Position numbers and translations under genes: made by a program. The notes beneath the pieces are model-generated. The model saw only the letters and a program-made list of their open reading frames with translations. It was not told where the DNA came from and did not search any database. This document shows, in pieces, positions 1-32,991 of a stretch of 64,000 nucleotides of DNA; within the stretch, counting starts at the first letter, position 1, and the number at the start of each line of letters is the position of its first letter. Where the stretch lies: assembly GCA_964393205.1 (NCBI GenBank), contig CAYMSV010000002.1, forward strand, positions 160,843 through 224,842. The letters are read 5' to 3'. The DNA is from an uncultured Pseudomonadales bacterium (GTDB taxonomy: Bacteria; Patescibacteriota; Microgenomatia; UBA1400; PJMF01).

Positions 1-1
1 A

Positions 2-400
2 GCTTGTGAATTGTTTAGCTATTTTGAGACACAATGGATAAAACTAAAACCAAGTTTAGTGATTATTAATCTCTCAAGTAATGATGAACAGCTTGGATTA
101 CAATTTGCTTTTGAAGAGGCACTGGAGGATTTTATTAAAATGAGTAAAGATCATAACTTTAGATTAGTTTTTGTAGCAGAAGCAAATAGTATTGAAATAA
201 GTGCAGAATTAGCAACCCATCGGATTATGGATGATATAGCAAAAAAAAATCAGATCATATTTATTGATATGCATGATCACTTACTTAAATACACAAAAAA
301 TGGAATACTATGGTGGGATTTTGTTCACCCTACAAGTTTTGGTCACGAGATAATTGCTAATCATCTTTTCCAAACTTTAAAACCCATAATACTAGATTGA
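2..400 (+). CDS. SGNH/GDSL-type hydrolase, C-terminal fragment (5' end outside window)
   Basis: ORF track 11..400. The frame stays open back to position 2. It has 'LSSNDEQ' (GxND-like block) and a C-terminal 'DFVHPTSFGHEIIA' (DxxH block) as in SGNH hydrolases. Confidence 0.45.
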   Translation, partial: ACELFSYFETQWIKLKPSLVIINLSSNDEQLGLQFAFEEALEDFIKMSKDHNFRLVFVAEANSIEISAELATHRIMDDIAKKNQIIFIDMHDHLLKYTKNGILWWDFVHPTSFGHEIIANHLFQTLKPIILD

Positions 401-445
401 TTAAATTAATATTTAATTTAATAATAAAGAATACAGATATCAATT

Positions 446-1942
446 ATGTTCAGTAAAAAGAAATTACTAAAAAAAATAATTTCAAAATATCAAAAGAGAG
501 AGAAACTACTTAATACCTTAGTAATTCTTTCAATATTTTGTTTAGGATTTTACATTCGCTTGTATCTCTATCCAACCAACAGTGTATGGGTTGGTGATGC
601 TGCCAGAGATATGCTCATTGGCCACCTAATTACTTTCAAAAACATGAGTTCTAGATACGGACCTTGGAATACTGGCATAAGTTCTACTTATCCACCTATT
701 TATTATTATTTCATTGCAACTTTAACTGCAATTGCTAAAGGCAATCATAATTCACTAGCTGGACTAATAATATTTTATCAATCGATTGGTATTATTCTAA
801 CTTTTTTAATCATCAAAAAAGAATTTTCCAAAGTTATAGCGCTAGCTGCAAGTCTTTTTTATGCTCTCTCATCAGCATTTATATATCTTAGTATGTTACA
901 AATAAGCGTTTCAAATAGCGTGATAATCGTTCTTATATCGTTGCTTTTTCTTCAATCTGCTTTTAAAAAAGATAAAATAATACACTTAGTAATTAGCGCT
1001 GTTTTGCTTTCACTGGCAAGTAGTTTTTGGTATGGAGCTATGTTTATCTGGCCAATCTATTTGTTAATATATTTACTAAATTTTGACTCACAAAAATCAG
1101 AAGTAGGTAACCTCTTAGGTTTAATTGTTTTTGGACTTAGTGCCATTTTATCCTTTTTCATATTTTTTTCACCAGTCATAGAAGTGGTAACTTTATCAAA
1201 TATCCGTCAACAGTTATTTGGCAACGGCATTAACCAACTCAGTTTATCTAATTTTAAAATTGATAATTTTTTAAAAAGCATTGAATTAACGATCAATATA
1301 CTCCATCCTAAATTAACTACTTTTATGTATTTTATATATGGCCTAATAATCCTTGCTGGCTTAAGTAGCAAAAATAAACACTTCAAAAAACTCACGCTCA
1401 TAGCTCTTTTTGCCTTACTTTTTCATTACATTTTTTATAATATTCATGAAAGTCCTTTGGGTCATTATTTAAATAACGTTTATTTTTTCTTAGCTGCCCT
1501 ACTTATTTATGCTTTAAGAATTGTTCTAGAAAAAAACACCTTAGCTTTTTTATCACTATTTCTGATTATTTTAATCAGCAGTAAATCTTTTGAGCAAGAA
1601 AAACTAGATAGTGATATTTCTTATCAACACTATTCGCAGGTCAGTAATCAGATACATCAAAGCTTTCCAGACTCAAGTATTATTGATGGTGGCGAATTTT
1701 GTCAAAATACCACAAATCATGATTATTGGAATTCAAGAGTTTTTTGGTACTTTCAAAAGGAGAAGCCTTATTTTATATTTGATGATGTATTTACTCAAGT
1801 AGATCTAACGAATACTAATACCGTTTTGTTGTGTTGGCAAAATCTAAACTCTAATCAAATAGACAGTGATTATCTCAACAGGGAAGATGATTTATTAAAA
1901 TTTCAGTTACAAGGTATTGAATATAAAATTTTTGAAAATTGA
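446..1942 (+). CDS. polytopic membrane protein, GT-C fold (ArnT/PMT-like) glycosyltransferase candidate
   Basis: 498 aa with more than 10 predicted TM helices. An early loop 'VGDAARDM...YPPIYYY' resembles the ArnT/GT39-GT83 N-terminal region. It sits in a glycan cluster and overlaps the next gene by 4 nt. Confidence 0.4.
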   Translation: MFSKKKLLKKIISKYQKREKLLNTLVILSIFCLGFYIRLYLYPTNSVWVGDAARDMLIGHLITFKNMSSRYGPWNTGISSTYPPIYYYFIATLTAIAKGNHNSLAGLIIFYQSIGIILTFLIIKKEFSKVIALAASLFYALSSAFIYLSMLQISVSNSVIIVLISLLFLQSAFKKDKIIHLVISAVLLSLASSFWYGAMFIWPIYLLIYLLNFDSQKSEVGNLLGLIVFGLSAILSFFIFFSPVIEVVTLSNIRQQLFGNGINQLSLSNFKIDNFLKSIELTINILHPKLTTFMYFIYGLIILAGLSSKNKHFKKLTLIALFALLFHYIFYNIHESPLGHYLNNVYFFLAALLIYALRIVLEKNTLAFLSLFLIILISSKSFEQEKLDSDISYQHYSQVSNQIHQSFPDSSIIDGGEFCQNTTNHDYWNSRVFWYFQKEKPYFIFDDVFTQVDLTNTNTVLLCWQNLNSNQIDSDYLNREDDLLKFQLQGIEYKIFEN

Positions 1943-3468
1943 AGATGGAAACTAAAACAAAAAAAAATATAAAAATAGCTAAAGTATTTAATCTTCTTTT
2001 TCAAATAATTATTCTTTTGTATTTTGTCTTGTTGTTGAGATTGATTACTCCACAGCGTCAAGTTGATCCAGATTTTTTTCAGTTTTTAAGAGATAGTAAA
2101 TATTATTTAAGATTAGAATTACCACCTTTAATTCAATCTTTACCGGCGAATCCAATTTTAATTGGCGTTTTTTCAAAATTATTTTCTGATGTTTTAACAG
2201 AAATAGAAATAGCCTTACTAATAAATGCCATTTCAATGAGTACAGCAATTTATGTACTTTACTCAATTTTAAAAAGAGAAAAAGGTATATGGCACGCTGG
2301 CTTAGGCATATTGTTTCTAATAACAAACCCTATAATTTTCGACTCAGCTATTTCTAGTAACTCTGAGGTGTTGTTTACTGCGTTTAGCTTACTAATATTT
2401 TATTTAATATGGAAAAATAAAACTCTATTGGCTAGTTGCTTAAGTGCTTTGGGCATATTGATTAGATATGAATCTATCTTATTATTTTTAAGTCTTATCT
2501 TAATTGACTTTTTAGACAGGCGTGACTTAAAAGATCTATTAAAAAAAGTTTTAATATTTTTAATTCCAGCCATGATTTTATTAAGCATATTAATGACTAG
2601 AAATCCATCCAACAGTTTTTTTGGTACTCCTTTCTTAGTAGAAGTGTCTCAAAGGTCGAGTGATATTCCTGAGTTAAGATTTATAATTAATTTTCCATTC
2701 GCTTTTTTTTACAAACAAAGATTGTTGTTTAGTAGAGTAAGTTTTATAAAAATCACTGTTGCCTTTGTTTTTTATTTATTAGTCTTTTTTTTACAAAAAA
2801 ATAATAAAAAAAGCAATAATTTAATCAAAAGTTCTCTGTTATTTACCTGCCTATTCTTAATTTTTCATACTTTTTTCCCTGCCTATTTGGAGAGATATTT
2901 TGTGCCCGCTCTTTTTAGTTTCGTCTTATCAATTAGCCTGAGTATAAAAAACTCAAGCAGCAATCTTAAGAAAGTATTTATTTTTATTTTGTTAATAATT
3001 ATCACCACTAATTTTTGGAAAGGTCTTCAAAAATTTTTTATCAATGAATATAACATTTTCTACAGTCATGATTATTTCACGGCACAAAGCATTAAAAATA
3101 AAATCACAATAGACCAGCAAAAATATATTATCTTATCCCCCTATCCAGAAACACTTGAGTACTATTACAGCGACCGTCAAGATATTTCTTTAATAACTGT
3201 AGAAGAAATAGAACAAAACAATGTTTACAGTAATTTAGCAGATGCCATTGCTAAATATGAAGAAATAAATAATATTAAAATCTTAATACCCTACAACAAT
3301 ATATTTGATTGGGGAATTCATGGAAAATATGATAATTCTTTAAGAAAATGGTATGAAACAATAGGCTTATATAGGTTGGGAGATTTCATTAATTCGGATA
3401 AAAGTTGTTTGTGGTATGAAGAGGGACCATCGCACAATTTTACCAAGGTATATATACTTTGCCCTTAA
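1939..3468 (+). CDS. polytopic membrane protein (second GT-C-like candidate)
   Basis: 509 aa, many TM helices, ATGA overlap with the upstream gene. No diagnostic motif was recognised. Confidence 0.3.
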   Translation: MKMETKTKKNIKIAKVFNLLFQIIILLYFVLLLRLITPQRQVDPDFFQFLRDSKYYLRLELPPLIQSLPANPILIGVFSKLFSDVLTEIEIALLINAISMSTAIYVLYSILKREKGIWHAGLGILFLITNPIIFDSAISSNSEVLFTAFSLLIFYLIWKNKTLLASCLSALGILIRYESILLFLSLILIDFLDRRDLKDLLKKVLIFLIPAMILLSILMTRNPSNSFFGTPFLVEVSQRSSDIPELRFIINFPFAFFYKQRLLFSRVSFIKITVAFVFYLLVFFLQKNNKKSNNLIKSSLLFTCLFLIFHTFFPAYLERYFVPALFSFVLSISLSIKNSSSNLKKVFIFILLIIITTNFWKGLQKFFINEYNIFYSHDYFTAQSIKNKITIDQQKYIILSPYPETLEYYYSDRQDISLITVEEIEQNNVYSNLADAIAKYEEINNIKILIPYNNIFDWGIHGKYDNSLRKWYETIGLYRLGDFINSDKSCLWYEEGPSHNFTKVYILCP

Positions 3469-3485
3469 AAAAATTGTAAAAAATA

Positions 3486-4484
3486 TTATTTACTTCTTTC
3501 TTTTTCCTCTATCCATCTATAAGTTTTTTTCATACCCTCGTGCAAATCAACTTCTGGCTCCCAATTAAGATATTTTTTTATCAAGCTGTTATCGCTACTT
3601 CTACCACGAACCCCTTGTGGAGCATCTAAATTATACTGACGATTCAATTTAATTTCAGCAATTTTTTCTATTATTGACAGCAATTCATTGATTGTTACCA
3701 ATTCACTTCTACCTAAATTAATTGGCTCATCAATTTCACTATGCATGATTAAATCAATACCTTTAACACAATCATCAATATACATAAAAGTTCTTGTCTG
3801 TTGACCGTCACCCCAAATTTCGATATTTTTCTTTTTATTAATTTTAGCTTCTATTACTTTCCTGCATAAAGCAGCCGGTGCTTTTTCTCGACCACCTTTG
3901 TACTCACCAAAAGGTCCATAAACATTGTGAAAACGAGCCACTCTTGTTACTAAATTAAAATCTTCACTAAAATGACGACACATTCGTTCGGAAAAAAGCT
4001 TTTCCCAACCATATCCATCTTCTGGCATGGCCGGATAAGCATCGCTCTCCTTCAATTCAATAACATTACTGTTGGATTGTTTATTCAAAGGATAAATACA
4101 AGCTGAAGAAGAGTAGAAAAATCTTTTTACTCCAAATTTAGCTGCTGCCATCAACATGTGGGTATTAATTAAAACATTAAGCATACACAAGCCCTTATTG
4201 TTTTCAATAAAACCCATACCACCCATGTCAGCAGCCAAATTATAAACTTCGTCGATACCCTTGCTGACAATTTGGCAATTTTTGAAATCCTTCAGATCGG
4301 AAACTACATTTTCTGCATTTCTATTAACTTGTTGCCACTCAGCCAGAGGTTTAATATCTACCGCTCTAATTTCTGTATTTTGTTGAAGATCAAAATAATT
4401 GACTAAATGACCACCAATAAAACCACCAGCCCCAGTAATTAAAATTTTTGTTTTTTTAGCATTGTTGTTTTTATTATGTTTCAT
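3486..4484 (-). CDS. NAD-dependent sugar-nucleotide epimerase, GDP-mannose 3,5-epimerase (GME)-like
   Basis: N-terminal Rossmann 'ILITGAGGFIGGHL'. Motifs 'AADMGGMGFI', 'RFFYSSSACIYP', 'LKESDAYPA', 'RFHNVYGPFG', 'KGGREKAPAA', 'WGDGQQTRTF' and 'GVRGRSSDNSLIK' match those I remember from plant GME along almost the whole length. Confidence 0.7.
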   Translation of the reverse strand: MKHNKNNNAKKTKILITGAGGFIGGHLVNYFDLQQNTEIRAVDIKPLAEWQQVNRNAENVVSDLKDFKNCQIVSKGIDEVYNLAADMGGMGFIENNKGLCMLNVLINTHMLMAAAKFGVKRFFYSSSACIYPLNKQSNSNVIELKESDAYPAMPEDGYGWEKLFSERMCRHFSEDFNLVTRVARFHNVYGPFGEYKGGREKAPAALCRKVIEAKINKKKNIEIWGDGQQTRTFMYIDDCVKGIDLIMHSEIDEPINLGRSELVTINELLSIIEKIAEIKLNRQYNLDAPQGVRGRSSDNSLIKKYLNWEPEVDLHEGMKKTYRWIEEKERSK

Positions 4485-4492
4485 TTTATCTT

Positions 4493-5611
4493 TTAATCGA
4501 TAACAGACATTATCTCATTCAATTTATTTTCCCAAGAATTTACTAAAGCTATTTTCCTTTGCTTTTGCTGTTGTTTTTTTGACCAATCCTGATTTAGTAG
4601 CTGAAAAATCAGCTTTTGCCAATCATCTCGTGAATAAGCAATTTTAACAAAATTAGGAAATTTTTGTAGCTCCTTAATATTACTGCTGATCACCGGCTTA
4701 CCAGCATAAAAATATTCGAATAATTTCATTGGATAACAATAGCGATTAAATACTAAAGATGCATCATAAGGAATAATTGCAAGATCAAAGGTCTCAATAA
4801 AAGACAAGATTTTATTTCTCTCTTGCTTATCATAATGGAAAAAATTTGGATGAGTTAAAAGCTGATTAAATTTTTCTTTTAAAAGTAATAAATCAGAGTC
4901 TTGACTAACGTTGGGCTCATAGTGCAAAGGACCAATAAAAACAAAGCTTAAATTTGGGTTATTTTTAAGCAAATCATCTAACAATAAAAAATCTAAACGC
5001 ATACTTATCTGTCCCACAAAACCTATAATTGGCTTGTTATCAGGTACCTTAACACTCTTTTTGGCTCTTTTTTTGAAAGTTTGATAATCGAACCCTTGTT
5101 TTACCAAGTGAATTTCTTTATCAGTTTCATTTTCATATAATTTTTTTAAACTTTTCGATATAGAAAAAATATAATCAGCGCTGTCCAGTATTTTTTTCTT
5201 TTGTGTTTGTAGTTTTTGATAAGCATCAGAATCAAAAGAAAAGTGAAAATCAACAATATCAAAAACAATTGAAAAAGCAAAAAATCTCAAACTTAATAAA
5301 TCTGCCAATTGAGGAAAAAAGATCCATAGATAACGTCTCTTTAAAGGAAATTTCAAAGAAAACCAAAGTCCTAATAAGAATTTGTATAAATGCTGATTTA
5401 TTTTTTTAATAAGAGTAAATCTACTAAATGGCAAACAATTAAAAGGCTTTATCTGCCTTATGTTTTTATTTTTCTTAAACTCTTGCTGATTAAAATTAAT
5501 AATATAAACTTGATTGTTTTTAGATAAACCCAGTGCTGTTTGCCAAACAAAATCACAAACTTGTTGCCCTCCAGATAAATCAGGAATTAAGATTAAAGCA
5601 TTCTTTAGCAT
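4493..5611 (-). CDS. glycosyltransferase family 1 (GT4-like)
   Basis: C-terminal 'FVGQISMRLD...FIGP' and 'KLFEYFYAGKPVISS', the E-x7-E type GT1 motif. Confidence 0.7.
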   Translation of the reverse strand: MLKNALILIPDLSGGQQVCDFVWQTALGLSKNNQVYIINFNQQEFKKNKNIRQIKPFNCLPFSRFTLIKKINQHLYKFLLGLWFSLKFPLKRRYLWIFFPQLADLLSLRFFAFSIVFDIVDFHFSFDSDAYQKLQTQKKKILDSADYIFSISKSLKKLYENETDKEIHLVKQGFDYQTFKKRAKKSVKVPDNKPIIGFVGQISMRLDFLLLDDLLKNNPNLSFVFIGPLHYEPNVSQDSDLLLLKEKFNQLLTHPNFFHYDKQERNKILSFIETFDLAIIPYDASLVFNRYCYPMKLFEYFYAGKPVISSNIKELQKFPNFVKIAYSRDDWQKLIFQLLNQDWSKKQQQKQRKIALVNSWENKLNEIMSVID

Positions 5612-5640
5612 TGGTTTATTATATTATAATAACAATTCTA

Positions 5641-6540
5641 ATGAAAAATTCAGTCTTACCAGTCAGCATTGCTATCATAACCAAAAATAGACCAATCAAG
5701 TTAAAGAGATGTTTATTAAGCTTAAAAGAACAGAGTTTTAAATTGTTCACCATCATTATTGTGGATAATGATGATAAGCAATCTGCACTTCCAATTACCC
5801 AAGACAAATTGTTCAACAAGTTAAAAATTGAATACCATCATTTACCCAAAAAAACTGTACCTGCTTGCCGTAATCAAGCAATGAAGTTTAACCAAAATCC
5901 TTATTTGGCTTTTATTGATGATGATTGTGTAGCAGACAAAAACTGGCTTAAAAAAGCTCTAGAAACAGTCTCTGATACAAAATCAAAATATGTCTTAGGA
6001 GTTACTAAATTATTAAATACCCAAAATATTTTTGCTATTGCTCAACACGCTAGAGATAATTTTTGGAAAGAATACAATGGCCAATTATTAGATACTAAAA
6101 ATTTATTGCTTGACGCTACTTTTTTCAAAAAAAAGAAATTAAAGTTTGATGAAAAATGTCAAAGCTTATATTATGATTCAGCCGATTTTGATTTAGATTT
6201 TCAAGTTAAAAAAGAAGAGATCAAAGGAGCTTACACATCAGAAATGTTGGTTTATCATGAAGAAACTGATTCTTTTGCTAAATTTAAATGCCGAGCTTTT
6301 CACCGTGGGAAATTAGCCAAATATTTAAACGGTAAGTGGAAGCTCAACGATAACTTGGTTAATCTAAAAGACCAATTGTTCTTATTATTTTTTTTACGTG
6401 TCATTAAAAATTTTGTTAAAGATTATCAAAAATATAAAGAACACATGGAATGTAATGCTTTTTTAAAAAAAATTTTTGCTACTTGCTTGATTAAAAACTT
6501 TGAAAGACACTACTTACTAGGTTATGTGGCAAAAAATTAA
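5641..6540 (+). CDS. glycosyltransferase family 2
   Basis: 'VSIAIITKNRP...IIIVDNDD' and a 'FIDDDC' DXD motif. The ORF track starts at 5533, but the M at 5641 (MKNSV) avoids overlap with the convergent GT1 and sits just before the GT2 fold. Confidence 0.75.
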   Translation: MKNSVLPVSIAIITKNRPIKLKRCLLSLKEQSFKLFTIIIVDNDDKQSALPITQDKLFNKLKIEYHHLPKKTVPACRNQAMKFNQNPYLAFIDDDCVADKNWLKKALETVSDTKSKYVLGVTKLLNTQNIFAIAQHARDNFWKEYNGQLLDTKNLLLDATFFKKKKLKFDEKCQSLYYDSADFDLDFQVKKEEIKGAYTSEMLVYHEETDSFAKFKCRAFHRGKLAKYLNGKWKLNDNLVNLKDQLFLLFFLRVIKNFVKDYQKYKEHMECNAFLKKIFATCLIKNFERHYLLGYVAKN

Positions 6541-8005
6541 AAAATCAACTGATTTACTTGCGGTTTTATCCTGCTTGCTATTTTTATTAGTCACCAGCCT
6601 GTTGCCTAATGTAAAAAGTTTTTTTGCCCTATCTTTTGTATTTCTATTTTTTTTAACTTGGCGTTATTCTTTTAGTAAAGCAATCATTTATGTCGCCCCT
6701 ATATTAACTACTCTTTGGATAGGTCAATCCCATTCGACTCTAGTTGTCCCTGCAAAAGCCATAGTTGTTCATCAGTATTTTGAAGGTCGACACTTATCTT
6801 GGACTTTTACTCCTTATTTAATGATTGCCACTGTCGCTCTACTTCTAATTCCATTTTGGCAAAGAATATACAAAAACAAAGTGAAATTGTTAATTCATGA
6901 GAAACTAATAATTATTGTAGCTGCTAGTGGGTTTTTATCTGCTATTTATGGGGCCGTATTATTAGAAATTAGTCTTTTTTTTGTTTTTAATAGTTTTTTA
7001 TCAGTGATTTGGACCTATTATTTGATCTTATTAAAAAATAATTTAAATAAAAAAGAGTTTTATAGATTGCTCACTACTTTTTTATTTATATGGCTCATTT
7101 TAGTCAACTACGAAAGCATTCTTGTTTTAGCACAAGTATTATTTAAACGACCAATTGGCTTAATCGTAGAAACTACAAAAACAGCTCCGATTTTTGGCCT
7201 AGGAGCAGACGAAGGCTCAGGCGGATTTCGTCCTTTCGGTCTAGCTTACCACCCCAATGGCTTAGCTAACAAACATCTCATTTACATATTCTTATTGGCT
7301 TTTATTAAATTTTATTTAAAAAAGCTAACAGCTCCCTTTAAAGACTTTGTTAATTGGACAATCTTAGGTTCAATAATTGTTATATTACTTACTTTAAGTA
7401 GGGCCGCTTATTTGGCTTTAATTATCAGTGTTCTGTTTATCTATTTTAGACACTCAAAATTTTTTAATAATCAACTCTCAACTTGGAAAAAAAAGCTAAA
7501 CAAGATTAGCAGGGTTCATAAGTTTTTGTTTTTATTAATTGCACTTTTTCTATTTAGTAAATTTAGCAGTCGCCTACTTAATTCAATTTACAGTTTTAGT
7601 GGTTGGGGAGGTTTTAGCACCAGATTAATACAATATCAAGAAGCTTGGGAAATATTTAAAAAAAGTCCATTTTTAGGTATTGGTGATCAAATGTTTGTTC
7701 CTATTGCTTACCAGCTTTTCCCAAAAGGAGTTGTCACCTACTTTCCAGAAAATGTTCATCAAGGATTCTTATTATTTATGATAGAAAGGGGCATTTTTGG
7801 TTTATTAGTATATTTATTGTTTTTTTATTATTTTTTAAAACATCTAATAAAATTAGATACTATTAGCAGCATCAATAAAACAATGTTATACTCTGGAATA
7901 ATAGGAAGTTTTATAATAATGTTTTTTCATCCAGAAAGAAATTTATTGAATACTTTATTCCTAATTGGAATCTCACTAACACACTATGAAAAAAAAACTA
8001 TTTAA
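6524..8005 (+). CDS. O-antigen ligase/polymerase-like (Wzy_C) membrane protein
   Basis: About 12 TM helices. A periplasmic loop 'GFRPFGLAYHPNGLANKH' is followed by 'LTLSRAAYLALII', the Wzy_C-type SR(A/G) motif. Confidence 0.5.
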   Translation: MWQKIKKSTDLLAVLSCLLFLLVTSLLPNVKSFFALSFVFLFFLTWRYSFSKAIIYVAPILTTLWIGQSHSTLVVPAKAIVVHQYFEGRHLSWTFTPYLMIATVALLLIPFWQRIYKNKVKLLIHEKLIIIVAASGFLSAIYGAVLLEISLFFVFNSFLSVIWTYYLILLKNNLNKKEFYRLLTTFLFIWLILVNYESILVLAQVLFKRPIGLIVETTKTAPIFGLGADEGSGGFRPFGLAYHPNGLANKHLIYIFLLAFIKFYLKKLTAPFKDFVNWTILGSIIVILLTLSRAAYLALIISVLFIYFRHSKFFNNQLSTWKKKLNKISRVHKFLFLLIALFLFSKFSSRLLNSIYSFSGWGGFSTRLIQYQEAWEIFKKSPFLGIGDQMFVPIAYQLFPKGVVTYFPENVHQGFLLFMIERGIFGLLVYLLFFYYFLKHLIKLDTISSINKTMLYSGIIGSFIIMFFHPERNLLNTLFLIGISLTHYEKKTI

Positions 8006-8852
8006 GAAAACCAATAAAAATAAACATAAAGTCTTTGACTTAATAGCTTTATTTGCTATCTTTTTTATTACAGCTAGTATTTATTTTTTATTTAGTAGGA
8101 AAACAGAATATTTATATATCACCATTAGACTTTTTAATCATGAATACCCTGAAAATTACATTGATACCAACCAACCAAAGGCATGGTATGTAGAGCAAAT
8201 TGTTCCAGGAAAATCACAGAAAAATCAACTAGGTGAAACTCTAATAGAGGTTGCTGATGTTTATAGCTACCCCAGCGCTTATGTTTTTAATGATGTTTAT
8301 GTTACTTTAAAGGTTAAAGCTATTCAAAATAAAGTAACTAAACAATATCTTTACGAAGGCGTTCCACTGTTAATACATGATGTTAGATCTTTTAAAGTAA
8401 AGGATCTACTTATCAGTGGAGAAATTATTGATCTTTTTGAAAGAAAAAGAGATTTAAAAAGTTTTAAATTAGTTTTAAAAATCAAAGCAAATGAAAAAAA
8501 CATTGATTACATCAATAACAGTCAATTATTGATTAAAGGAATAGACAATCACATCGCTAATTTACTAAAAGAAGGTAACACAGTAAAAGATAGTGAAAAC
8601 ACTACTTTGGTAGAAGTCACTAAGGTAGAAAAAAAGCCTGGAGAAAGAGAGCTTGCCAGTACAAATGGCATTATAAAGATAATAGATCCGGAAAGAACTC
8701 AAGTTTATTTACATGTGAATTTATTAGCTGAAAATATTAATGACTATTATTTTTATCGCAAAAAAGAAAGCTTATTGGTTGGTGAAAACCTGTGGTTAAA
8801 TTTTGATCAGGTAACTGTTATTGGTGAAATTATATCAATTGAAGAAAATTGA
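7986..8852 (+). CDS. hypothetical N-terminally anchored protein (glycan locus)
   Basis: 288 aa. One N-terminal TM helix after a basic stretch. No known motif. Confidence 0.4.
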   Translation: MKKKLFKKTNKNKHKVFDLIALFAIFFITASIYFLFSRKTEYLYITIRLFNHEYPENYIDTNQPKAWYVEQIVPGKSQKNQLGETLIEVADVYSYPSAYVFNDVYVTLKVKAIQNKVTKQYLYEGVPLLIHDVRSFKVKDLLISGEIIDLFERKRDLKSFKLVLKIKANEKNIDYINNSQLLIKGIDNHIANLLKEGNTVKDSENTTLVEVTKVEKKPGERELASTNGIIKIIDPERTQVYLHVNLLAENINDYYFYRKKESLLVGENLWLNFDQVTVIGEIISIEEN

Positions 8853-8877
8853 TATCTGTTATTAGAAACACTTTTCT

Positions 8878-9741
8878 ATGAAGAAATTACCAAAAATTTC
8901 TATTGTTACTCCATCTTACAATCAAGGAAAATTTATTGAAGAAACGATTCAATCAGTTTTAAATCAAGACTATCCTAATTTCGAATACCTAATAATAGAC
9001 GGAGGTTCGAGTGATCAAAGTTTGGAAATTATCAAAAAATATCAAAAGAAAATTGATTATTTTGAAAGCAAAAAAGACCGAGGACAATCCCATGCCATTA
9101 ATAAAGGTTTTGCAAAAACTGATGGTGAGATTATGGCTTGGATTAATAGCGACGATATCATTAGACCAGGCACTCTTAAGCTAGTGGCTAGTATTTTTGC
9201 AAAATTTCCAGAAATAGATTGGTTGACAAGTTTACCATCTACCATAAACGAAACTGGACATCTCATATATTTAGCTAAAAAGCCTTTATATATAAGATTT
9301 CTAATTAAAAAAGGATTATATACCAGAAAATTATTAGGTTTCATTATGCAAGAAGGAACCTTTTGGCGAAGATCACTATGGGAAAAAACTGGCAGTAAAT
9401 TAGATGAGGTGCCTTATTCAATGGACATGAAGCTTTGGCAGAAATTTGCACAACATAGTCAACTCTATTGCGTTGATGCCTGTTTAGCTTCATATCGACT
9501 TAATCCTAATCGAAAAAACAATGATCAGCACCGAAAATATTACGCCGAAATAAATGATAAAACACCAATTGTCTTAGCAACAATAATCAAAGTTATATGG
9601 AGACAGATAGCAAAACTTATTCACTTATGTAAATTAAGTCCAAGCATATACTTCAATCAAGAAAAAAACACTTGGTTTTTTAGAAAAAACTTATTTAATG
9701 TAAAAGGCTTCAAGCTCTTGAGCAATAGTGCGCCAAGATAG
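8878..9741 (+). CDS. glycosyltransferase family 2
   Basis: 'ISIVTPSYNQGKFIEETIQSVLNQDYPNFEYLIIDGGSSD' and 'AWINSDD'. Confidence 0.75.
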   Translation: MKKLPKISIVTPSYNQGKFIEETIQSVLNQDYPNFEYLIIDGGSSDQSLEIIKKYQKKIDYFESKKDRGQSHAINKGFAKTDGEIMAWINSDDIIRPGTLKLVASIFAKFPEIDWLTSLPSTINETGHLIYLAKKPLYIRFLIKKGLYTRKLLGFIMQEGTFWRRSLWEKTGSKLDEVPYSMDMKLWQKFAQHSQLYCVDACLASYRLNPNRKNNDQHRKYYAEINDKTPIVLATIIKVIWRQIAKLIHLCKLSPSIYFNQEKNTWFFRKNLFNVKGFKLLSNSAPR

Positions 9742-10857
9742 TTTATCAGCTAATGACCTAGCATTTTTGCCCAGTTGTTTTAATTTATTTGTTTGTTTAA
9801 GACTTTTATCTATCGCGGAAGCAAACTTTTTGGGTGTCTCTGGTGCTAAAATGCCAACTTTTTCCTGAGTCAACAATTTCTTAACTTCGCCAGTTGGATT
9901 AGCAATTGTAGGTCTACCAACTGCCAAATAATCTCCTAGTTTATTGGGAAATTTACCCCTATTGATTTCTTTATCTGCAAAGGGTAAAAGCATTAAATCA
10001 CCAGTCGACAAATATAAACTTAACAAATCTCTATCAACAACTCCTTGATATATGACCTTATTATTTAAATTTTTATGAACCTTTATTTGCCTCTCGAAAG
10101 CTGGTATTGGAGGACCCAATAACATTAATAGCACGTCTTTCCTTAAACAATTTAATTCTATAAAGGTTTTAGCTAATAATTCTTCATCATAAGTACCAAC
10201 ATATAAATAAACCAATATTTTCTTTGTTTGACTCAAACCCAGTTTGCGTCTTGCAACGAATTTTGACATGGTTTTGATACCCTTAATATTAGCCCCAACA
10301 CCTAGAAAAAATACATTATCTTTGTTTTTTCTAATTAATTTAGCTTTTTTAACTAAATCATCACTAATTGCTGTAACAGCAAAAGCTAAACGAATAAAAA
10401 GACGCTCAGCGTAATGATCAAAATTAGCTGTTAAAAAACTAAAAGGTCCATAGCGACGATCAGCTATACCTCCTCTTCCCCAAAGGTCGGCCCAGTCCAA
10501 AAACCACTTTGTTTTTGGAAAAAAGCAAGATTTAATCAAAGCAGGAATAGTCGCTGCTGGCCGGTGATTGAAACTTTGAATAACATCACATTTTGAAAAG
10601 AAAATAGCCACACTTCTAAAACAAATATCAAAAATATCATTTCCTCCTTTTCGAAAACGATAAGGCATTAAACCTATTGATTCTACGACCTTCACACCCT
10701 TTTCATAACTTACTTTTGGTAAAAAACTAATTTTTTTGGCACTAGTCCACAAAGTTACTTGGTGCCCTAGCTCAGTTAATCCCTGCGCTAAAGATAGGGA
10801 GCGCAAATAACTTCCACCAATTTCTTTAGCCTCATAGGTTAAAAAAACTATTTTCAT
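9691..10857 (-). CDS. glycosyltransferase family 1 (GT4-like)
   Basis: 'MKIVFLTYEAKEIGGSY' N-terminus (start at the internal M; the ORF track gives 10887). C-terminal 'KLGDYLAVGRPTIANPTGE'. Confidence 0.7.
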   Translation of the reverse strand: MKIVFLTYEAKEIGGSYLRSLSLAQGLTELGHQVTLWTSAKKISFLPKVSYEKGVKVVESIGLMPYRFRKGGNDIFDICFRSVAIFFSKCDVIQSFNHRPAATIPALIKSCFFPKTKWFLDWADLWGRGGIADRRYGPFSFLTANFDHYAERLFIRLAFAVTAISDDLVKKAKLIRKNKDNVFFLGVGANIKGIKTMSKFVARRKLGLSQTKKILVYLYVGTYDEELLAKTFIELNCLRKDVLLMLLGPPIPAFERQIKVHKNLNNKVIYQGVVDRDLLSLYLSTGDLMLLPFADKEINRGKFPNKLGDYLAVGRPTIANPTGEVKKLLTQEKVGILAPETPKKFASAIDKSLKQTNKLKQLGKNARSLADKLSWRTIAQELEAFYIK

Positions 10858-10957
10858 CTGCTTGATTATAAAGCGCAATCGCAACATTGCACAACATAAA
10901 GTAAAAGAATTTCATCTAGCCAGTGACTAAATAAACAAAATCACTTATCATAAGATC

Positions 10958-11647
10958 ATGTTTGGCATTAAAACTTTTATTAAAGATTATTTGTATATTA
11001 AAGTTAGCTCAAAATTGAGTAATGATTGGTTTATTAAAAAATTGATGACAACTTTTCAAGCTGATCAACCAGGTCATAGAGCTAATATTGCCAAAGCTGA
11101 TATGGGTTATGGCTGGATTCATTACGGTTTCATACGTCAACAAAAACCAAAAAAACTTTTGTGCGTTGGATCACGACACGGTTTCATTCCCGCAATTATG
11201 GCACAAGCCTGCAAAGACAATGGTTTTGGAAAAGTGGATTTTGTTGATGCTGGCTTCGATTCAACAAGTGAAAATCACTGGACAGGAGTTGGTTATTGGC
11301 TTACTGAAAAAGGGAAAAACTGTTTTAAAGAATTTAAATTAAAAAAACATATTAAGCTTTTCGTTCAAACAACAGAAACTTTTGCTAAAAATTATCCAAA
11401 AAACAAATACGATTACATATATGTTGACGGAGATCATTCATACAAGGGGGTTAAAACTGATTTTAAATTATTTTGGCCAAAACTAAATCAAGGAGGTTTT
11501 ATGCTTTTTCATGATATTAGCGTTACTCAAACCTTAAATGAAGGAGAGTATGGTGTCTGGAAACTATTTGAAGAACTAAAAGAAAAAAATCCTTACATTG
11601 CTTTCGATTATTCCAAATCAGGACTGGGAATTATACAAAAAAAATAA
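10958..11647 (+). CDS. class I SAM-dependent methyltransferase (TylF/CmcI-like, probable sugar O-methyltransferase)
   Basis: 'YIYVDGDHSYKGVKTDFKLFWPKLNQGGFMLFHDI' is characteristic of the macrocin-O-methyltransferase/CmcI family. Confidence 0.55.
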   Translation: MFGIKTFIKDYLYIKVSSKLSNDWFIKKLMTTFQADQPGHRANIAKADMGYGWIHYGFIRQQKPKKLLCVGSRHGFIPAIMAQACKDNGFGKVDFVDAGFDSTSENHWTGVGYWLTEKGKNCFKEFKLKKHIKLFVQTTETFAKNYPKNKYDYIYVDGDHSYKGVKTDFKLFWPKLNQGGFMLFHDISVTQTLNEGEYGVWKLFEELKEKNPYIAFDYSKSGLGIIQKK

Positions 11648-11696
11648 TTATTTAACTCTATAGACAAAAATATTAAAACTTTAAAAATACATTTTT

Positions 11697-12254
11697 ATGA
11701 AAATTAATATTTTTAAATTACTTGCTTTAAAGAAACAAAAAAATCAAATCATTATTATTACTGGTCCGTCTGGTGTAGGTAAAACTACAATTTCCAAAAA
11801 GCTTTCTCAAGCTTTAGATAATAGTGTTTATATTTCTCTAGATACACTTAGGTCATTTGTTAAAAATGGATATCAAAGTCCAGCAACTTTCAAACAAACA
11901 GCGGCCGTTATTAAACAAAGCTCCTTAGCTAGAAACTGTGCTCTTTTTATTGCAAAAGCTTACTATAAAAACGGATTCAACATTATTGTTGATGATGTTT
12001 TGTATAAAAAAAGCTTCGTTTTTTGGACTAAGAAACTAAAAAACTATAATTTTAAAATTATAGTCTTGAAAGAAGAACTAAAAACAATTATTAAGAGAAA
12101 TACACTAAAAAAAACAGGACGTTTAGATGAAGAAATAATAATTTACTTAAAAAAACAATTTGATGAGTTGGGTCCAAATAAAGATTTATACTTCATAAAA
12201 AACGAAAACACAGATAAAACAGTCAAAAGTATAAAAAAAATTATAGCTAATTAA
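11697..12254 (+). CDS. P-loop NTPase/kinase (AAA_33/zeta-toxin-like small kinase)
   Basis: Walker A 'ITGPSGVGKTT'. Its 185 aa size is typical of small nucleotide/sugar kinases. Confidence 0.5.
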   Translation: MKINIFKLLALKKQKNQIIIITGPSGVGKTTISKKLSQALDNSVYISLDTLRSFVKNGYQSPATFKQTAAVIKQSSLARNCALFIAKAYYKNGFNIIVDDVLYKKSFVFWTKKLKNYNFKIIVLKEELKTIIKRNTLKKTGRLDEEIIIYLKKQFDELGPNKDLYFIKNENTDKTVKSIKKIIAN

Positions 12255-12255
12255 A

Positions 12256-13383
12256 TTAGATACGCGGAATATTTTCTAGATTCGTATTATCAGAAATTAA
12301 AACTAATCGCGCCTTTTCCTGTAATTCAGCTATATCATGAGCTCCTTGATACCACAATGATCTTCTTAGCCCACCAGTTAATTTGTTTAATATAGGCTTA
12401 ACACTTCCTTTATATTCCACTAAGGCTTCAACACCCTCCTCCAAAGCTTCATTTCCTGGTGTTAAAGATTGAGACTTGTTAGAAAATACTATGTTTTTTA
12501 CTTTACTCTTTAACAAATGAAGGTTTTTTTCTAAGAAATTCTTATTATCTGAGTCGTTAGAAGTTATAGCTTTTTTACTACACATTCCCCAAGTATTTTT
12601 ATATTTCTTCCCATCAATTTTAATTATTTCTCCAGGAGATTCTTCTGTTCCACTAAACATACCTCCTATCATTACTGCCGAAGCACCAAAGGCCAAAGCT
12701 TTAGCAAGGTCTCCGGGATACTTAATTCCACCTTCAGAAATAATTGGTATTTTATATTTTTTAGCTGCTTTAGAACATTCAAGAACAGCACTTAATTGAG
12801 GCCTACCAACCCCAGTTACTAAACGGGTAGTACAATGTGATCCTGGCCCAATTCCTACATTTAAACTATCTATTCCTGATTTTGCCAGCTCTACAACAGC
12901 CTCTTTGGTAGCAATGGGGCCAGTGCTTAATTGAGCTTTTGGATATTTTTTTCTGACTTCTTTGATAAACTTTAAAGTAGGCGTATTCAAAGAATGATAG
13001 GTATAAATGCAAATAATATCAGTGCCTAAATTTAATAAATCACCAATATGTTTGAGGCCACTTACTGACAACTCTCCAACTGTCGCCGCTACCTTAATTT
13101 TTTTGCTTTTAGCTTCAGCCACCTGTTTGAGTTGATTTTCAAAACCATCAAAACCATGGATATAACCCATACCACCCATTTCAGCCATAGCTATCGCCAT
13201 TTGCGCCTCAGTAACCCCAGGCATTGGAGAGGATAATATTGGTATATCAATTTCAATTTTCTTAGACACCTTAGTTTTCAAATTAATCTTTGTTTTTTCC
13301 TCACTCATATCAAAATCGGCTTTCTGAGCTAAAAACAAAACATCATCAAAAGTTACTTCTGGATTTGTGGAAATTATTTTCAT
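12256..13383 (-). CDS. IMP dehydrogenase/GMP reductase family protein lacking the CBS subdomain
   Basis: Catalytic loop 'GIGPGSHCTTRLVTGVGRPQLSAV', 'MAIAMAEMGGMGYIH' and 'ISEGGIKYPGD' indicate an IMPDH-family TIM barrel of about 375 aa. Confidence 0.75.
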   Translation of the reverse strand: MKIISTNPEVTFDDVLFLAQKADFDMSEEKTKINLKTKVSKKIEIDIPILSSPMPGVTEAQMAIAMAEMGGMGYIHGFDGFENQLKQVAEAKSKKIKVAATVGELSVSGLKHIGDLLNLGTDIICIYTYHSLNTPTLKFIKEVRKKYPKAQLSTGPIATKEAVVELAKSGIDSLNVGIGPGSHCTTRLVTGVGRPQLSAVLECSKAAKKYKIPIISEGGIKYPGDLAKALAFGASAVMIGGMFSGTEESPGEIIKIDGKKYKNTWGMCSKKAITSNDSDNKNFLEKNLHLLKSKVKNIVFSNKSQSLTPGNEALEEGVEALVEYKGSVKPILNKLTGGLRRSLWYQGAHDIAELQEKARLVLISDNTNLENIPRI

Positions 13384-13411
13384 AAAGCAAAATATACCAT
13401 ATCTAAAAAAT

Positions 13412-14041
13412 TTATAAAATTATTTTTTTAAACTTATCAATGTGTATGGCTTTAAAACCAAAATTAGTGGCTGGCTCTATATCACTATGAAAGGAATCAC
13501 CTATCATAAGATGTTCTGATTTTTTCAAACCAGTTAAATCAATCACTTTTTTTAGAAGATCTACAGAAGGTTTAAGTTTTCCTTCGGTATCTCTAGCTAT
13601 AATTTCTTCAAAGGGATGATACGATTCTTTTTTCTTCTTAAATCCTATCGCTTTTAAACATAAAAGAACATCTTTTTTTCTAGAATTTGTTAAAATAATG
13701 TGTTTAAAAGATGATAGCTCTTCAATTGCTTTAACTAAGCCTGGATCTTTATTTAAAAAACGATGCTTGTTTAATATGTCTTCAATTTGATCGATAATTT
13801 TAATTTCATTTTTTAAAGAGGAATTTTCTGTAATAGTCCTACTCCAACTACCATGTTTTTTGGAAAGTTCACGAAATTCTTCTATGGTAACAGTAAAACA
13901 ATGCTTGTTAAAAAATTTAAGAAATTCTTTTTCCATTGCTTCGCCAACAGAAAAATTTTGATATAAAGTCCCATCTAAATCCCAAACTAAGGCTTTAATA
14001 TCTTTGAATAGAATGTTTTTTTTTATTTTTTTAATCAACAT
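13412..14041 (-). CDS. HAD-superfamily hydrolase
   Basis: Motif I 'LVWDLDGTLY'. C-terminal 'MIGDSFHSDIE' is motif IV-like. Confidence 0.65.
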   Translation of the reverse strand: MLIKKIKKNILFKDIKALVWDLDGTLYQNFSVGEAMEKEFLKFFNKHCFTVTIEEFRELSKKHGSWSRTITENSSLKNEIKIIDQIEDILNKHRFLNKDPGLVKAIEELSSFKHIILTNSRKKDVLLCLKAIGFKKKKESYHPFEEIIARDTEGKLKPSVDLLKKVIDLTGLKKSEHLMIGDSFHSDIEPATNFGFKAIHIDKFKKIIL

Positions 14042-14177: not shown

Positions 14178-14837
14178 ATGTTACAGAAAAATAAAAAAGC
14201 TAAAATTTTTATTCACAGCAGTTTCTTTGGGCACTTCAAACTAATCATTGATCTCTTATTGACCATATTTATATTAATCCTGATATCACCTTTAATTATT
14301 ATTTCTTTTCCTTTTTTACTGTGGCAAATCGGCCAACCAATCATCTTTAAACAGAAAAGAACTGGTAAAGGCGCTCAAAATTTCGAGCTTTATAAGCTAC
14401 GCACTATGGTAAAAAATGCTGAACTACTTCGTTCTAAAAACCAAAAACATTTTGCTGAATTAAACTATGCTCCAGCTCCTATGTTTAAAATTAAAAATGA
14501 TCCACGTTTTTTAAAAATTGGCAAATTTCTATCCCATAGCGGCCTAGATGAATTGCCACAATTGATTAATATTTTAAAGGGTCAAATGTCTTTAGTGGGT
14601 CCAAGACCGCTACCAACTAATGAAGCTCAAACTTTAAAAAAAATTGATCCTGATTGGTATTTTTGGAGACATCAAGTAAAACCAGGCTTGTTTTCCCTAT
14701 GGGTATTAAATAACGAAAGACACAAAAACTTGGAGGCTTGGAGGGGGCTTGAAAAAAAAACACTTGCTTTAAATTTGAAACAACAATATTTCTTGATTTT
14801 TCAAATTATTTGGAGTCAATTGTTAAAAATGCTTTAA
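14178..14837 (+). CDS. polyprenyl-phosphate sugar phosphotransferase (PglC/WbaP C-terminal-domain-type 'bacterial sugar transferase')
   Basis: N-terminal re-entrant helix. 'PIIFKQKRTGKGAQNFELYKLRTM' and 'DELPQLINILKGQMSLVGPRP' are diagnostic. Confidence 0.75.
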   Translation: MLQKNKKAKIFIHSSFFGHFKLIIDLLLTIFILILISPLIIISFPFLLWQIGQPIIFKQKRTGKGAQNFELYKLRTMVKNAELLRSKNQKHFAELNYAPAPMFKIKNDPRFLKIGKFLSHSGLDELPQLINILKGQMSLVGPRPLPTNEAQTLKKIDPDWYFWRHQVKPGLFSLWVLNNERHKNLEAWRGLEKKTLALNLKQQYFLIFQIIWSQLLKML

Positions 14838-18084: not shown

Positions 18085-18161
18085 GCGTGTGTAGCTCAAT
18101 TGGTTAGAGCTCCAAGCTTATACCTTGGGGGTTCTAGGTTCAAGTCCTAGCACACGCACCA
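18085..18161 (+). tRNA. tRNA with anticodon UAU (tRNA-Ile(UAU) by standard decoding), encoded CCA
   Basis: Hand-folded cloverleaf. Acceptor GCGTGTG/CACACGC 7 bp. D-arm GCTC-AATTGGTTA-GAGC. Anticodon stem CCAAG/CTTGG with loop C-T-TAT-A-C. 5-nt variable loop. T-arm CTAGG-TTCAAGT-CCTAG. Discriminator A, then CCA. Confidence 0.75.
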
Positions 18162-18631
18162 TGATAAAACTTATTTTTAAAATAATAAAATTATTAATTT
18201 TTATTTTAATCTTATTAACTTTAAGTGTTTTTGCCTACCAAAAAGGTTGGCTTAAAAACCATCCTCTTCACGCCCAAATTGAAAATTTTCAATCAGGAGA
18301 AATTAAAAATTGGCAAGATTTTATTAGCTCTTTTCAAGATCAGGAAAAATTAAATTTACAGTTAAACGAATTGAGTAATGATGCTGGAAAACAAATTAAA
18401 ATCAGTGCACAGAAAGCCTTAGAAGCTGGAAAAGTAGCTCAAGAGTTTATGTCAGAGTCTGTTCAAACAGACGAATTCGAAGACAAAAAAATCGGTGAAA
18501 AGGCTTTCGAATATGGTCAATATATTTATTGCAAAGCAGTGGTAGATGATTGGCAAGAAAGACTTATTGAAGATAATTCAGAAAAAGAAGAAGATATTTT
18601 AGATCAAGACGAAATAAAAACTAACGAATAG
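18161..18631 (+). CDS. hypothetical N-terminally anchored acidic protein
   Basis: The ORF track starts at 18125 inside the tRNA. The start is more likely M at 18161 (MIKLIFKII...), with a TM helix then an acidic helical region. Confidence 0.35.
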   Translation: MIKLIFKIIKLLIFILILLTLSVFAYQKGWLKNHPLHAQIENFQSGEIKNWQDFISSFQDQEKLNLQLNELSNDAGKQIKISAQKALEAGKVAQEFMSESVQTDEFEDKKIGEKAFEYGQYIYCKAVVDDWQERLIEDNSEKEEDILDQDEIKTNE

Positions 18632-19421
18632 TGGTGCCAACACAATCTTGACCACTGAGCGCCCAAAACAAATTGTCTTTCATCATTCCAGAAATAATTA
18701 CTGATTCAATCCCTTTTTTTGCCAGATCCAGTGATTCCTCAATTTTTAAACCCATGCCGCCAGTTACATCAAAACCTCTGGTATGACGCAAATCTCTGCT
18801 AATTTTAGGCCAAGTACTAGCCGTAATTTCTGGTACAAGCTGACCTTGCTTGTCTAAAAAACCAGCTACCTCTGTTACATGAATGATTTTATTTACTTGC
18901 ACTTTTTTTTCTAAAAAATAATCGGCCAAAAAAGCTAAGATTTTTTCTGTTGACCAAATAGTACAACCTTGATCACTATCAACTAAAACATCACCACAGG
19001 TAACTGGTAACAAACCTTTTTGCAAATACTGATCGATGGCATCAGCACAAAAATTCAATAATTTTCTTTTTTTAGTAACAATCGTATTACTGGCATAAAA
19101 AGAGACTGCCGGTAATTCGTGTTTTAAAAACTCATGCACCACTAAACGATTAAGGGCAGCAGCACTATCTTGAACAATAGCCATACCTAAAAGACTCTCA
19201 TCGTTAATAAATCCAGCCATTGTTTTATATTTACTAGCTGGAACATGAGCAAAACTGCCCTGACCATGACCAACAATTAACAACTGATCTGGCTTCTCCT
19301 GCTTAGCACTTGCAATTTCACCAACTAAACGTTTTAGAACCGCTCCTCTCAGAGACATAGGAATTTCTTTATCAGTAATAATGGAACCACCCAATTTAAT
19401 CAAAGTAAGATTTTTTTTCAT
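18621..19421 (-). CDS. isopentenyl phosphate kinase (amino-acid-kinase fold)
   Basis: 'LIKLGGSIITDK', 'VGHGQGSFAH' (GGGxFGH-like) and 'DVTGGMGLKIE' match the IPK family of the alternative mevalonate pathway. Confidence 0.65.
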   Translation of the reverse strand: MKKNLTLIKLGGSIITDKEIPMSLRGAVLKRLVGEIASAKQEKPDQLLIVGHGQGSFAHVPASKYKTMAGFINDESLLGMAIVQDSAAALNRLVVHEFLKHELPAVSFYASNTIVTKKRKLLNFCADAIDQYLQKGLLPVTCGDVLVDSDQGCTIWSTEKILAFLADYFLEKKVQVNKIIHVTEVAGFLDKQGQLVPEITASTWPKISRDLRHTRGFDVTGGMGLKIEESLDLAKKGIESVIISGMMKDNLFWALSGQDCVGTTIR

Positions 19422-19430
19422 TTTAATTTT

Positions 19431-20327: not shown

Positions 20328-20392
20328 AACAGTTTATTAGTCGTATTTTTTAAGAAAATCACGCAAAACTGCTTAATTAGTAATTTCATAGT

Positions 20393-31659: not shown

Positions 31660-31688
31660 AAAAGAGCCAGGTATAATGAAAAATTGAA

Positions 31689-32126: not shown

Positions 32127-32149
32127 TATATAAATAAAATAATAAAATT

Positions 32150-32539: not shown

Positions 32540-32541
32540 CT

Positions 32542-32967: not shown

Positions 32968-32991
32968 AATTAACAAATTAAAAAAATAAAT

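Follow-up and report, generated by a model that had tools for sequence, protein, structure and literature searches.

A minus-strand open reading frame (ORF) at positions 3486-4484 of the DNA studied here (the window: 64,000 nucleotides, positions 160,843 to 224,842 of contig CAYMSV010000002.1) very probably encodes a GDP-mannose 3,5-epimerase (GM35E or GME, EC 5.1.3.18). The gene lies among genes for a lipid-linked bacterial glycan, and this gene content makes it reasonable to expect L-galactose or L-gulose in the product. The ORF runs from ATG to stop and codes for 332 amino acids (aa), and the plus-strand frame across the same positions is riddled with stop codons. An earlier note on this DNA had given the coordinates and the size correctly and had left out the strand. 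Near its N-terminus the protein carries the Rossmann motif KILITGAGGFIGG, with the NAD-binding glycine-rich stretch GAGGFIGG at residues 18-25. At least 24 contigs, which stem from several metagenome samples, carry the identical protein; the longest of them, Ga0334883_1000055 (JGI 3300033177), has 199,750 bp.

When the protein was compared with all PDB chains using phmmer, the top five entries were all GDP-mannose 3,5-epimerases, i. e. 2c59, 2c54, 2c5a and 2c5e from Arabidopsis and 8sg0 from Myrciaria dubia, with 315-318 bits and E values of about 1e-93. The best chain, 2c59, aligned with residues 10-328 of the query (317.8 bits, E=1.1e-93). The best chain of any other class was the Thermotoga UDP-glucose 4-epimerase 4zrm with 100.8 bits, and UXS, Fcl, RmlB and the other short-chain dehydrogenase/reductase (SDR) classes stayed below this value: A gap of about 217 bits separates the GME chains from every other solved SDR. 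Over the whole length, the protein is 48-49% identical to the two plant GMEs and 17-25% identical to RfbB, Fcl, Gmd, GalE, RfaD and RfbD of Escherichia coli. MfGM35E of Methylacidiphilum fumariolicum SolV, the only biochemically characterised bacterial GME, is 50.5% identical to the Arabidopsis enzyme AtGME (PMC6678494), and the window protein thus resembles the plant enzyme to much the same degree as a bacterial GME of proven function does.

The active site is intact. The residues that define GM35E and set it apart from GalE and GDP-fucose synthase have been listed in the review by Beerens et al. (PMC8787198): In AtGME these are the triad S143/Y174/K178, the acid-base pair C145/K217, of which the Lys is replaced by His in GMER, R306, which acidifies the Cys and is a Lys in GMER, the diphosphate-binding R243, and the likewise diagnostic N203. 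We mapped these eight residues onto the query via pairwise and multiple alignment, and all eight are kept. S127, Y158 and K162 form the [ST]-Y-xxx-K triad for the oxidation and reduction at C4, C129 and K201 correspond to the pair for epimerisation at C5 and C3, R295 is the Cys-acidifying Arg, R231 the diphosphate-binding Arg, and N187 the conserved Asn. In the same alignment, Fcl of E. coli shows the published C/H/K pattern, GalE has T/G at the columns of the pair, and no such pair is present in GalE, RfbB, Gmd or RfaD; RfbB has a Glu opposite Cys129 of the query. Since the published Fcl pattern was reproduced and the pair is missing in GalE, RfbB, Gmd and RfaD, this residue test discriminates between the classes. 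The eight residues are kept in all of the 120 closest homologs, with a single Ser-to-Thr exchange that is permitted by the motif. The earlier statement that the protein matches GME-type enzymes motif for motif therefore holds.

Phylogeny and fold lead to the same result. A neighbour-joining tree was calculated from a MAFFT alignment of the query, eight bacterial homologs (from Patescibacteria, Phycisphaerales and Acidobacteriaceae), two plant GMEs and six SDRs of E. coli K-12 (GalE, RfbB, RfbD, Gmd, Fcl and RfaD, taken from NC_000913.3), with bipartition support from 500 bootstraps. The query, the eight bacterial homologs and the two plant GMEs form a clade in 500 of 500 bootstraps that excludes the six E. 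coli enzymes, and the bacterial sequences form a subclade within it with 95% support; this is a distance tree with few outgroups, and neither the UXS class nor MfGM35E is represented in it. The query is thus grouped with the plant GMEs rather than with UDP-hexose 4-epimerases or dTDP-sugar enzymes, the placement by which the earlier note would have been refuted. An AlphaFold2 (AF2) model built from a 47-sequence alignment has a mean pLDDT of 95.0 and a pTM of 0.92, and the top 14 matches of this model in a Foldseek search of the PDB are all GME chains, the best being 2c54_A (TM 0.92, rmsd 1.4 Å, E 2.4e-41). The next matches, GalE-type and other SDRs, follow at E 5e-28. The earlier assignment of the protein to the GME type rather than to GalE, RmlB or UXS is borne out by the PDB scores, where UXS is among the lower ones, as well as by the residues and the tree.

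GME homologs had been regarded as uncommon in bacteria in the earlier note, and this is not the case. At least 8000 proteins match at E<=1e-20 in a 90%-clustered protein database. The best 120 of these are 66-95% identical to the query, and the named sources among them are Patescibacteria, Pacebacteria, Woesebacteria, Phycisphaerales and Acidobacteriaceae; several of the best homologs, including the 95%-identical P0001, carry the JGI label 'GDP-D-mannose 3',5'-epimerase'. When 1.84 billion representatives at 50% identity were searched exhaustively with phmmer, 1062 clusters were obtained at E<=1e-30, and at least 572 stretches encode relatives in the GTDB genomes, of which one per species was scanned. 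The best 80 of these at least 572 stretches (60-74% identity), the set used here for the counts of phyla and neighbours, belong to Patescibacteria, Planctomycetota, Verrucomicrobiota, Acidobacteriota, Cyanobacteria, Chloroflexota, Alphaproteobacteria, Actinomycetota, Spirochaetota, Rhodothermales, Eremiobacterota and others, about 12 phyla overall. The rarity that lent the original finding much of its interest is not real. The annotation itself is nothing out of the ordinary: Good descriptions of the family exist, the properties of one bacterial member are known, and at least one public pipeline names it correctly. A literature search found no work pairing GDP-L-galactose or GME with Patescibacteria or the candidate phyla radiation (CPR), and GME is here a known family whose occurrence in this lineage has yet to be discussed in print.

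The gene is part of a glycan locus, and its neighbours are listed in the table. The window holds what may be parts of a Wzx/Wzy-type pathway, i. e. a PglC-type phosphoglycosyl transferase, two GT4 and two GT2 glycosyltransferases and one Wzy_C protein. On its left side, the contig goes on with the GDSL protein in full, PGK, an ABC2_membrane/ABC_tran pair and another Wzy_C protein of 723 aa. The two polytopic membrane proteins, the PglC-type initiator and the Wzy-like protein that had been described as neighbours of GME are all real, and the idea of a lipid-linked glycan finds support in the initiator, the GT4 and GT2 enzymes and the Wzy_C domain. For the O-methyltransferase proposed in the same place, a methyltransferase is indeed present, and its action on an oxygen atom of a sugar is presumed. 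By its domain, the PglC-type protein would be the initiating enzyme of the glycan. For the Wzy_C protein, the roles of O-antigen polymerase, ligase and O-oligosaccharyltransferase all come into question, as the Wzy_C domain does not distinguish between them, and the glycan may accordingly end up either on protein or in a surface polymer.

Table. Genes of the glycan locus around the GME gene (positions in the window)
Positions	Strand	Feature	Remarks
11-400	+	C-terminal part of GDSL-family esterase or acyltransferase	499 aa on the contig; gene cut by the window edge
446-1942	+	Polytopic GT-C-type protein	PF13231 PMT_2, 28.7 bits; about 10 hydrophobic segments
1939-3468	+	Second polytopic GT-C-type protein	PMT_2, 31.4 bits; about 8 hydrophobic segments; convergent with GME; weak NCBIfam match to cell-surface glycopolymer formation families
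3486-4484	-	GDP-mannose 3,5-epimerase homolog	332 aa; sequence, residues, tree, fold
4493-5611	-	GT4-family glycosyltransferase, TuaH-like	NCBIfam 104 bits, model cut-off 550
5641-6540	+	GT2 glycosyltransferase	299 aa by the source gene call; longest ORF has a GTG start at 5533 and would overlap GT4
6524-8005	+	Wzy_C-domain polytopic protein	72.6 bits
7986-8852	+	Conserved 288-aa protein	One N-terminal hydrophobic segment; no Pfam or NCBIfam match; always after Wzy_C in related loci
8878-9741	+	GT2 glycosyltransferase	102.5 bits
9691-10887	-	Second GT4 glycosyltransferase	Strongly conserved in related loci, 500-556 bits
10958-11647	+	Class I S-adenosylmethionine (SAM) methyltransferase	PF13578 Methyltransf_24, 71.8 bits
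11697-12254	+	Small P-loop kinase-like protein (AAA_18/AAA_33)	
12256-13383	-	CBS-less IMPDH-family protein	375 aa
13412-14041	-	HAD hydrolase	
14178-14837	+	PglC-type polyprenyl-phosphate phosphoglycosyl transferase	219 aa; PF02397, 149.5 bits; one hydrophobic segment

Two further observations concern the locus as a whole. The trio of the Methyltransf_24 protein, the CBS-less IMPDH-family protein and the HAD hydrolase stands at the edge of the glycan locus both in the window (10958-14041) and in the related locus L093 (9428-12032), which may point to a conserved association; its role might, as a guess, be the supply of guanine nucleotides. The GC content is 0.285-0.30 over the glycan locus (window 1-10000) as compared to 0.31-0.39 in the rest of the window, and this lower value fits the variable, exchange-prone nature of the locus.

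The closest partner of GME is the TuaH-like GT4 gene, which is located 8 bp upstream on the same strand; from this arrangement, the two genes are probably co-transcribed. A PDB sequence search with this GT4 gave nothing at E<=0.001 and its TuaH score is under the threshold, so that its donor specificity cannot be inferred. The GT4 family is small (117 proteins at E<=1e-30), and 12 of the 17 closest non-identical homologs are on contigs equal in size to ones carrying top GME homologs. The co-location of GT4 and GME was confirmed directly in three loci: In L014 (Pacebacteria UBA6180) the two genes overlap by 4 bp, in L094 the order is GT4, PMT_2, GME, and L016 is the third case. Its position makes the adjacent GT4 a good candidate for an L-hexosyl transferase that would use the GME product. 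On three other CPR contigs, GME is again found among genes for Wzy_C, GT2, GT4, WecG, Bac_transf, GDSL and carbamoyltransferase proteins. In every CPR locus that we inspected, GME is within a block of glycan genes and never elsewhere; its position in the block varies, being beside WecG in L007, after PMT_2 in L094 and after a beta-propeller protein in L005.

Glycosyltransferases also prevail next to GME in other phyla. According to a Pfam scan of the 140 ORFs that immediately flank GME in the best 80 GTDB loci, 20 encode WecG/TagA/CpsF (GT26) proteins, 13 Glycos_transf_1 and 10 Glycos_transf_2 proteins; UDPG_MGDP_dh and Wzy_C each account for four, and ManC (NTP_transferase plus MannoseP_isomer) for two. 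According to local phmmer searches, 35 of 83 loci contain a GT26 ORF, and in 29 of the 83 it is within 300 bp of GME (L007 7249-8987, L020 9986-11724, L017 9986-11718, L058 1646-3411 and 25 further loci). These pairs span Patescibacteria, Planctomycetota, Acidobacteriota, Verrucomicrobiota, Spirochaetota and Alphaproteobacteria; the window and L001, the region of about 10 kb to its left, are without GT26 (WecG) in the local phmmer search. That GT26 is the commonest neighbour of GME suggests that enzymes of this family may be GDP-L-galactose or GDP-L-gulose transferases, and a literature search on newer bacterial GDP-L-galactose transferases returned plant papers only. As a side observation, the records of L013, L015 and L020 are titled 'uncultured Pseudomonadales bacterium', and with a GC content of 31-40% these labels look wrong. 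L015 and L020 have a CPR-like glycan-locus synteny with the window, and L015 holds a homolog of the second GT4 of the window (9691-10887) at 501 bits.

The best genomic evidence for GDP-mannose as the substrate of the family in bacteria comes from two alphaproteobacterial loci (L072, L077) with ManC directly downstream of GME: In Vineibacter terrae and in a Reyranellaceae metagenome-assembled genome, a CpsB-type bifunctional ManC (519-546 bits) starts 2-4 bp past the GME stop codon, and the GME homologs beside it are 63-64% identical to the query. For the enzyme of the window, the steps of catalysis can be proposed from the established GM35E mechanism (PMC8787198, PMC6678494). Y158, K162 and S127 with bound NAD+ would oxidise C4 of GDP-alpha-D-mannose, C129 and K201 would take off and restore protons at C5 and C3 with R295 acidifying the Cys, and the 4-keto group would be reduced last to give GDP-beta-L-galactose and/or GDP-beta-L-gulose. 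The L-hexose would then be moved onto a polyprenyl-diphosphate-linked oligosaccharide that is begun by the PglC-type enzyme and extended by GT4 and GT2 enzymes. Methylation or acylation by the Methyltransf_24 and GDSL proteins might follow, and after export the glycan would be processed outside the cytoplasm by the Wzy_C and GT-C proteins. We consider this whole chain from an NAD-dependent epimerase to a finished surface glycan to be probable, with less confidence than the enzyme class itself.

Several results weigh against this pathway. In the approximately 74 kb of the window and L001, Pfam and phmmer searches detected no ManC, ManB or other sugar nucleotidyltransferase, and a supply of GDP-mannose can thus only be presumed; RfbA, GalF, Gmd and GalE were likewise not found there, and an Fcl query matched only GME itself (phmmer). 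A Wzx-type flippase or Polysacc_synt protein was not detected in the window (Pfam scans, phmmer), nor was a Wzx homolog in the window together with L001 (phmmer). Promoter- and terminator-like matches round the GT4-GME pair are no commoner than in shuffled sequence, and the one promoter-like site upstream of the GT4 start (10 of 12 positions) is no evidence. Moreover, the ratio of L-galactose to L-gulose cannot be read from the sequence. Finally, L092 and L093 carry the GT4 and the same core module, i. e. [WecG]-GT4-GT2-unknown-Wzy_C-GT2 divergent from the GT4 homolog, with no GME within 6 kb. The GT4 is thus not obligately dependent on GME, and GME behaves like an accessory that joins a conserved core of genes.

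These results bear on the question how else the gene might be explained. One alternative is that the product of a genuine epimerase is used outside the locus, either for a glycolipid made via the MGDG-synthase-like GT28 protein (23330-24454), whose gene lies 19 kb from GME, or for another glycoconjugate, and that the adjacency of the GT4 is incidental. The GME-free loci L092 and L093 and the variable position of GME among related loci would agree with this. However, the location of GME inside glycan-gene blocks in all inspected CPR loci, the 8-bp gap to the GT4, the conservation of this pair in the nearest relatives L014 and L016 and the prevalence of glycosyltransferases among the GME-adjacent genes across phyla make it improbable. 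A shift in the specificity of the enzyme deserves more attention, although we regard it as unlikely: A member of the GME family might epimerise only C5 and thus form GDP-L-gulose alone, or its substrate might be a different GDP-sugar, for example GDP-glucose, GDP-mannuronate or a GDP-heptose. Already MfGM35E and AtGME give mixtures of L-galactose and L-gulose (PMC6678494), and BlmG, which is 42% identical to AtGME, is proposed to yield L-gulose in bleomycin synthesis (PMC6678494). The UDP-glucose/GDP-mannose dehydrogenases among the flanking ORFs hint at uronic-acid chemistry in some loci, and that no ManC was found in the approximately 74 kb would also fit a shifted specificity. On the other hand, all tested catalytic and substrate-contacting residues are identical to those of AtGME, the query matches plant GME to the same extent as the bacterial enzyme characterised with GDP-mannose, two loci have ManC and GME in one operon, and the window contains no dehydrogenase.

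The third alternative, that the protein belongs to some SDR class other than GME, has next to no chance of being correct and is already refuted at the level of sequence, phylogeny and fold. It owes its appeal to the annotation libraries: Pfam resolves the protein merely to PF01370/PF16363 (Epimerase/GDP_Man_Dehyd; 145 bits for PF01370), and the NCBIfam library is devoid of a GME model, so that homologs are titled 'NAD-dependent epimerase/dehydratase family protein' in NCBI records and the best NCBIfam match is Fcl. Yet every NCBIfam match is far under its cut-off, the PDB scores leave the gap described above, and the tree separates the protein from these classes with 100% bootstrap support. 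For the UDP-hexose 4-epimerase GalE, TIGR01179 gave 88.8 bits versus a cut-off of 262.3, the identity to the E. coli enzyme is 20.6%, and the Cys/Lys pair, which is missing in GalE and RmlB, is present in the query. For the RmlB/RfbB class with its Asp/Glu dehydration pair, the values are 92 bits versus 365.1 for TIGR01181; in the query Cys129 replaces the Glu, and the class is outside the clade. In the case of GDP-L-fucose synthase (GMER/Fcl), NF047922 reached 120.7 bits versus a cut-off of 500, and the query has a base Lys (Lys201) and an acidifying Arg (Arg295) instead of the His and Lys of this enzyme.

The loci with the core module and no GME are also of interest in their own right. In L092, the GT4 is followed by two large proteins without Pfam matches. 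In L093 (6001-8171), the GT4 homolog is followed by a gene of the RGP family (PF03214, UDP-arabinopyranose-mutase-like) where the window has GME, and this looks as if one sugar-nucleotide-modifying enzyme had been exchanged for another at the same place of a glycan module that is otherwise conserved.

If the pathway from GME to a surface glycan is correct, the L-hexose would be a defined and unusual building block in the almost uncharacterised cell-surface chemistry of the Patescibacteria, whose way of life relies on contact between their surface and host cells. The pathway would also provide candidate transferases for GDP-L-galactose or GDP-L-gulose, enzymes that are sought by glycoengineers (PMC8787198), and the pairing of GME with GT26 nominates a transferase family for these nucleotide sugars. 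It is tempting to go further and to speculate that GME provides L-galactose or L-gulose for the surface of the ultra-small Patescibacteria and of bacteria from many other phyla, that the GME-adjacent transferases, TuaH-like GT4 here and GT26 in the 29 loci mentioned above, are the first bacterial GDP-L-hexose glycosyltransferases, and that the accessory GME gene creates a strain-variable L-sugar epitope, possibly for host attachment or phage evasion. This broader proposal is tentative, and we would rather doubt than assert it in its entirety.

As to the organism, the window has a low GC content (0.29-0.39) and carries dnaA, dnaN, yidC, a sigma-70 factor, L25/TL5 and uppS, and the nearest named GME homologs and the syntenic loci are from Patescibacteria. 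Judged by this gene content, the window derives from a bacterium, most likely a CPR member near Pacebacteria or Microgenomates. An archaeal origin, for which an isopentenyl-phosphate-kinase-like gene and an ATP-dependent ligase might speak, is rejected in view of DnaA, DnaN, YidC, sigma-70, L25/TL5 and UppS.

The rest of the window offers several observations apart from the glycan. ARAGORN found a tRNA-Ile with the anticodon TAT (UAU) at 18085-18161; this is unusual, because most bacteria read AUA via a lysidine-modified CAU tRNA. At 18621-21487, an amino-acid-kinase-family protein (266 aa, the size of isopentenyl phosphate kinase), a zf-ChsH2/DUF35-like protein (298 aa) and a polyprenyl synthetase are grouped, and this suggests that parts of an isoprenoid route of the mevalonate type are present; the UppS gene is at 34299-35015. 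An ATP-dependent DNA ligase of the archaeal/eukaryotic type with all three domains (24479-26305) adjoins a Fic/DOC protein with a DeoR-like helix-turn-helix (26369-27481). Five of six tandem small ORFs at 31243-34266 have a T4SS_pilin domain (PF18895), and a VirB4/TraG-like ATPase (731 aa) and a PrgI-family protein (48331-52658) are encoded directly beside dnaA (46718-48226) and dnaN (45210-46349). Together, the pilin array and the VirB4/PrgI genes resemble an apparatus of the type IV secretion kind in the region of the replication origin. Very large ORFs of 580-1115 aa at 39447-42494, 53065-56412, 56479-58725, 58781-60523 and 61518-63917 have no Pfam match or DUF4012 only and may encode surface or secretion-associated proteins.

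Among the known systems, the plant enzymes are the best studied point of comparison. The GMEs of Arabidopsis (2c54, 2c59, 2c5a, 2c5e) and M. dubia (8sg0, 8skb) are 48-49% identical to the query over about 310 residues and share with it the triad, the Cys/Lys pair, the acidifying Arg, the diphosphate-binding Arg, the Asn and the fold (TM 0.92). The query lacks the N- and C-terminal extensions of the plant proteins (332 as compared to 377 aa), and it has the canonical GxxGxxG motif (GAGGFIGG) whereas AtGME has GxxGxxA (PMC6678494). The contexts differ as well: Plant GME feeds ascorbate and cell-wall synthesis, whereas the query sits in a bacterial polyprenol-linked glycan locus. GDP-L-fucose synthase (GMER/Fcl/WcaG) is the nearest other SDR class; it also epimerises a 4-keto GDP-hexose at C3 and C5 with a catalytic Cys, but Fcl is only 24.5% identical to the query and uses a His base and a Lys acidifier in place of Lys201 and Arg295. 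MfGM35E is, like the query, a bacterial protein at a similar distance from AtGME, and the two are likened here via AtGME rather than by direct alignment. Its gene adjoins a glycosyltransferase gene and is near a methyltransferase gene, and a role in envelope glycan synthesis has been proposed (PMC6678494). The hosts are different, as MfGM35E comes from a diderm thermoacidophile with a lipopolysaccharide (LPS) context and the query from an apparent member of the Patescibacteria. Patescibacteria are generally regarded as lacking LPS. Finally, the actinomycete GME homologs BlmG (bleomycin) and the A201A epimerase are proposed sources of L-gulose or L-galactose for a dedicated glycosyltransferase (PMC6678494). 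Compared by their description, these two belong to secondary-metabolite clusters, whereas the GME of the window is accompanied by a PglC-type initiator as well as by Wzy_C and GT-C proteins in a locus for a surface glycan.

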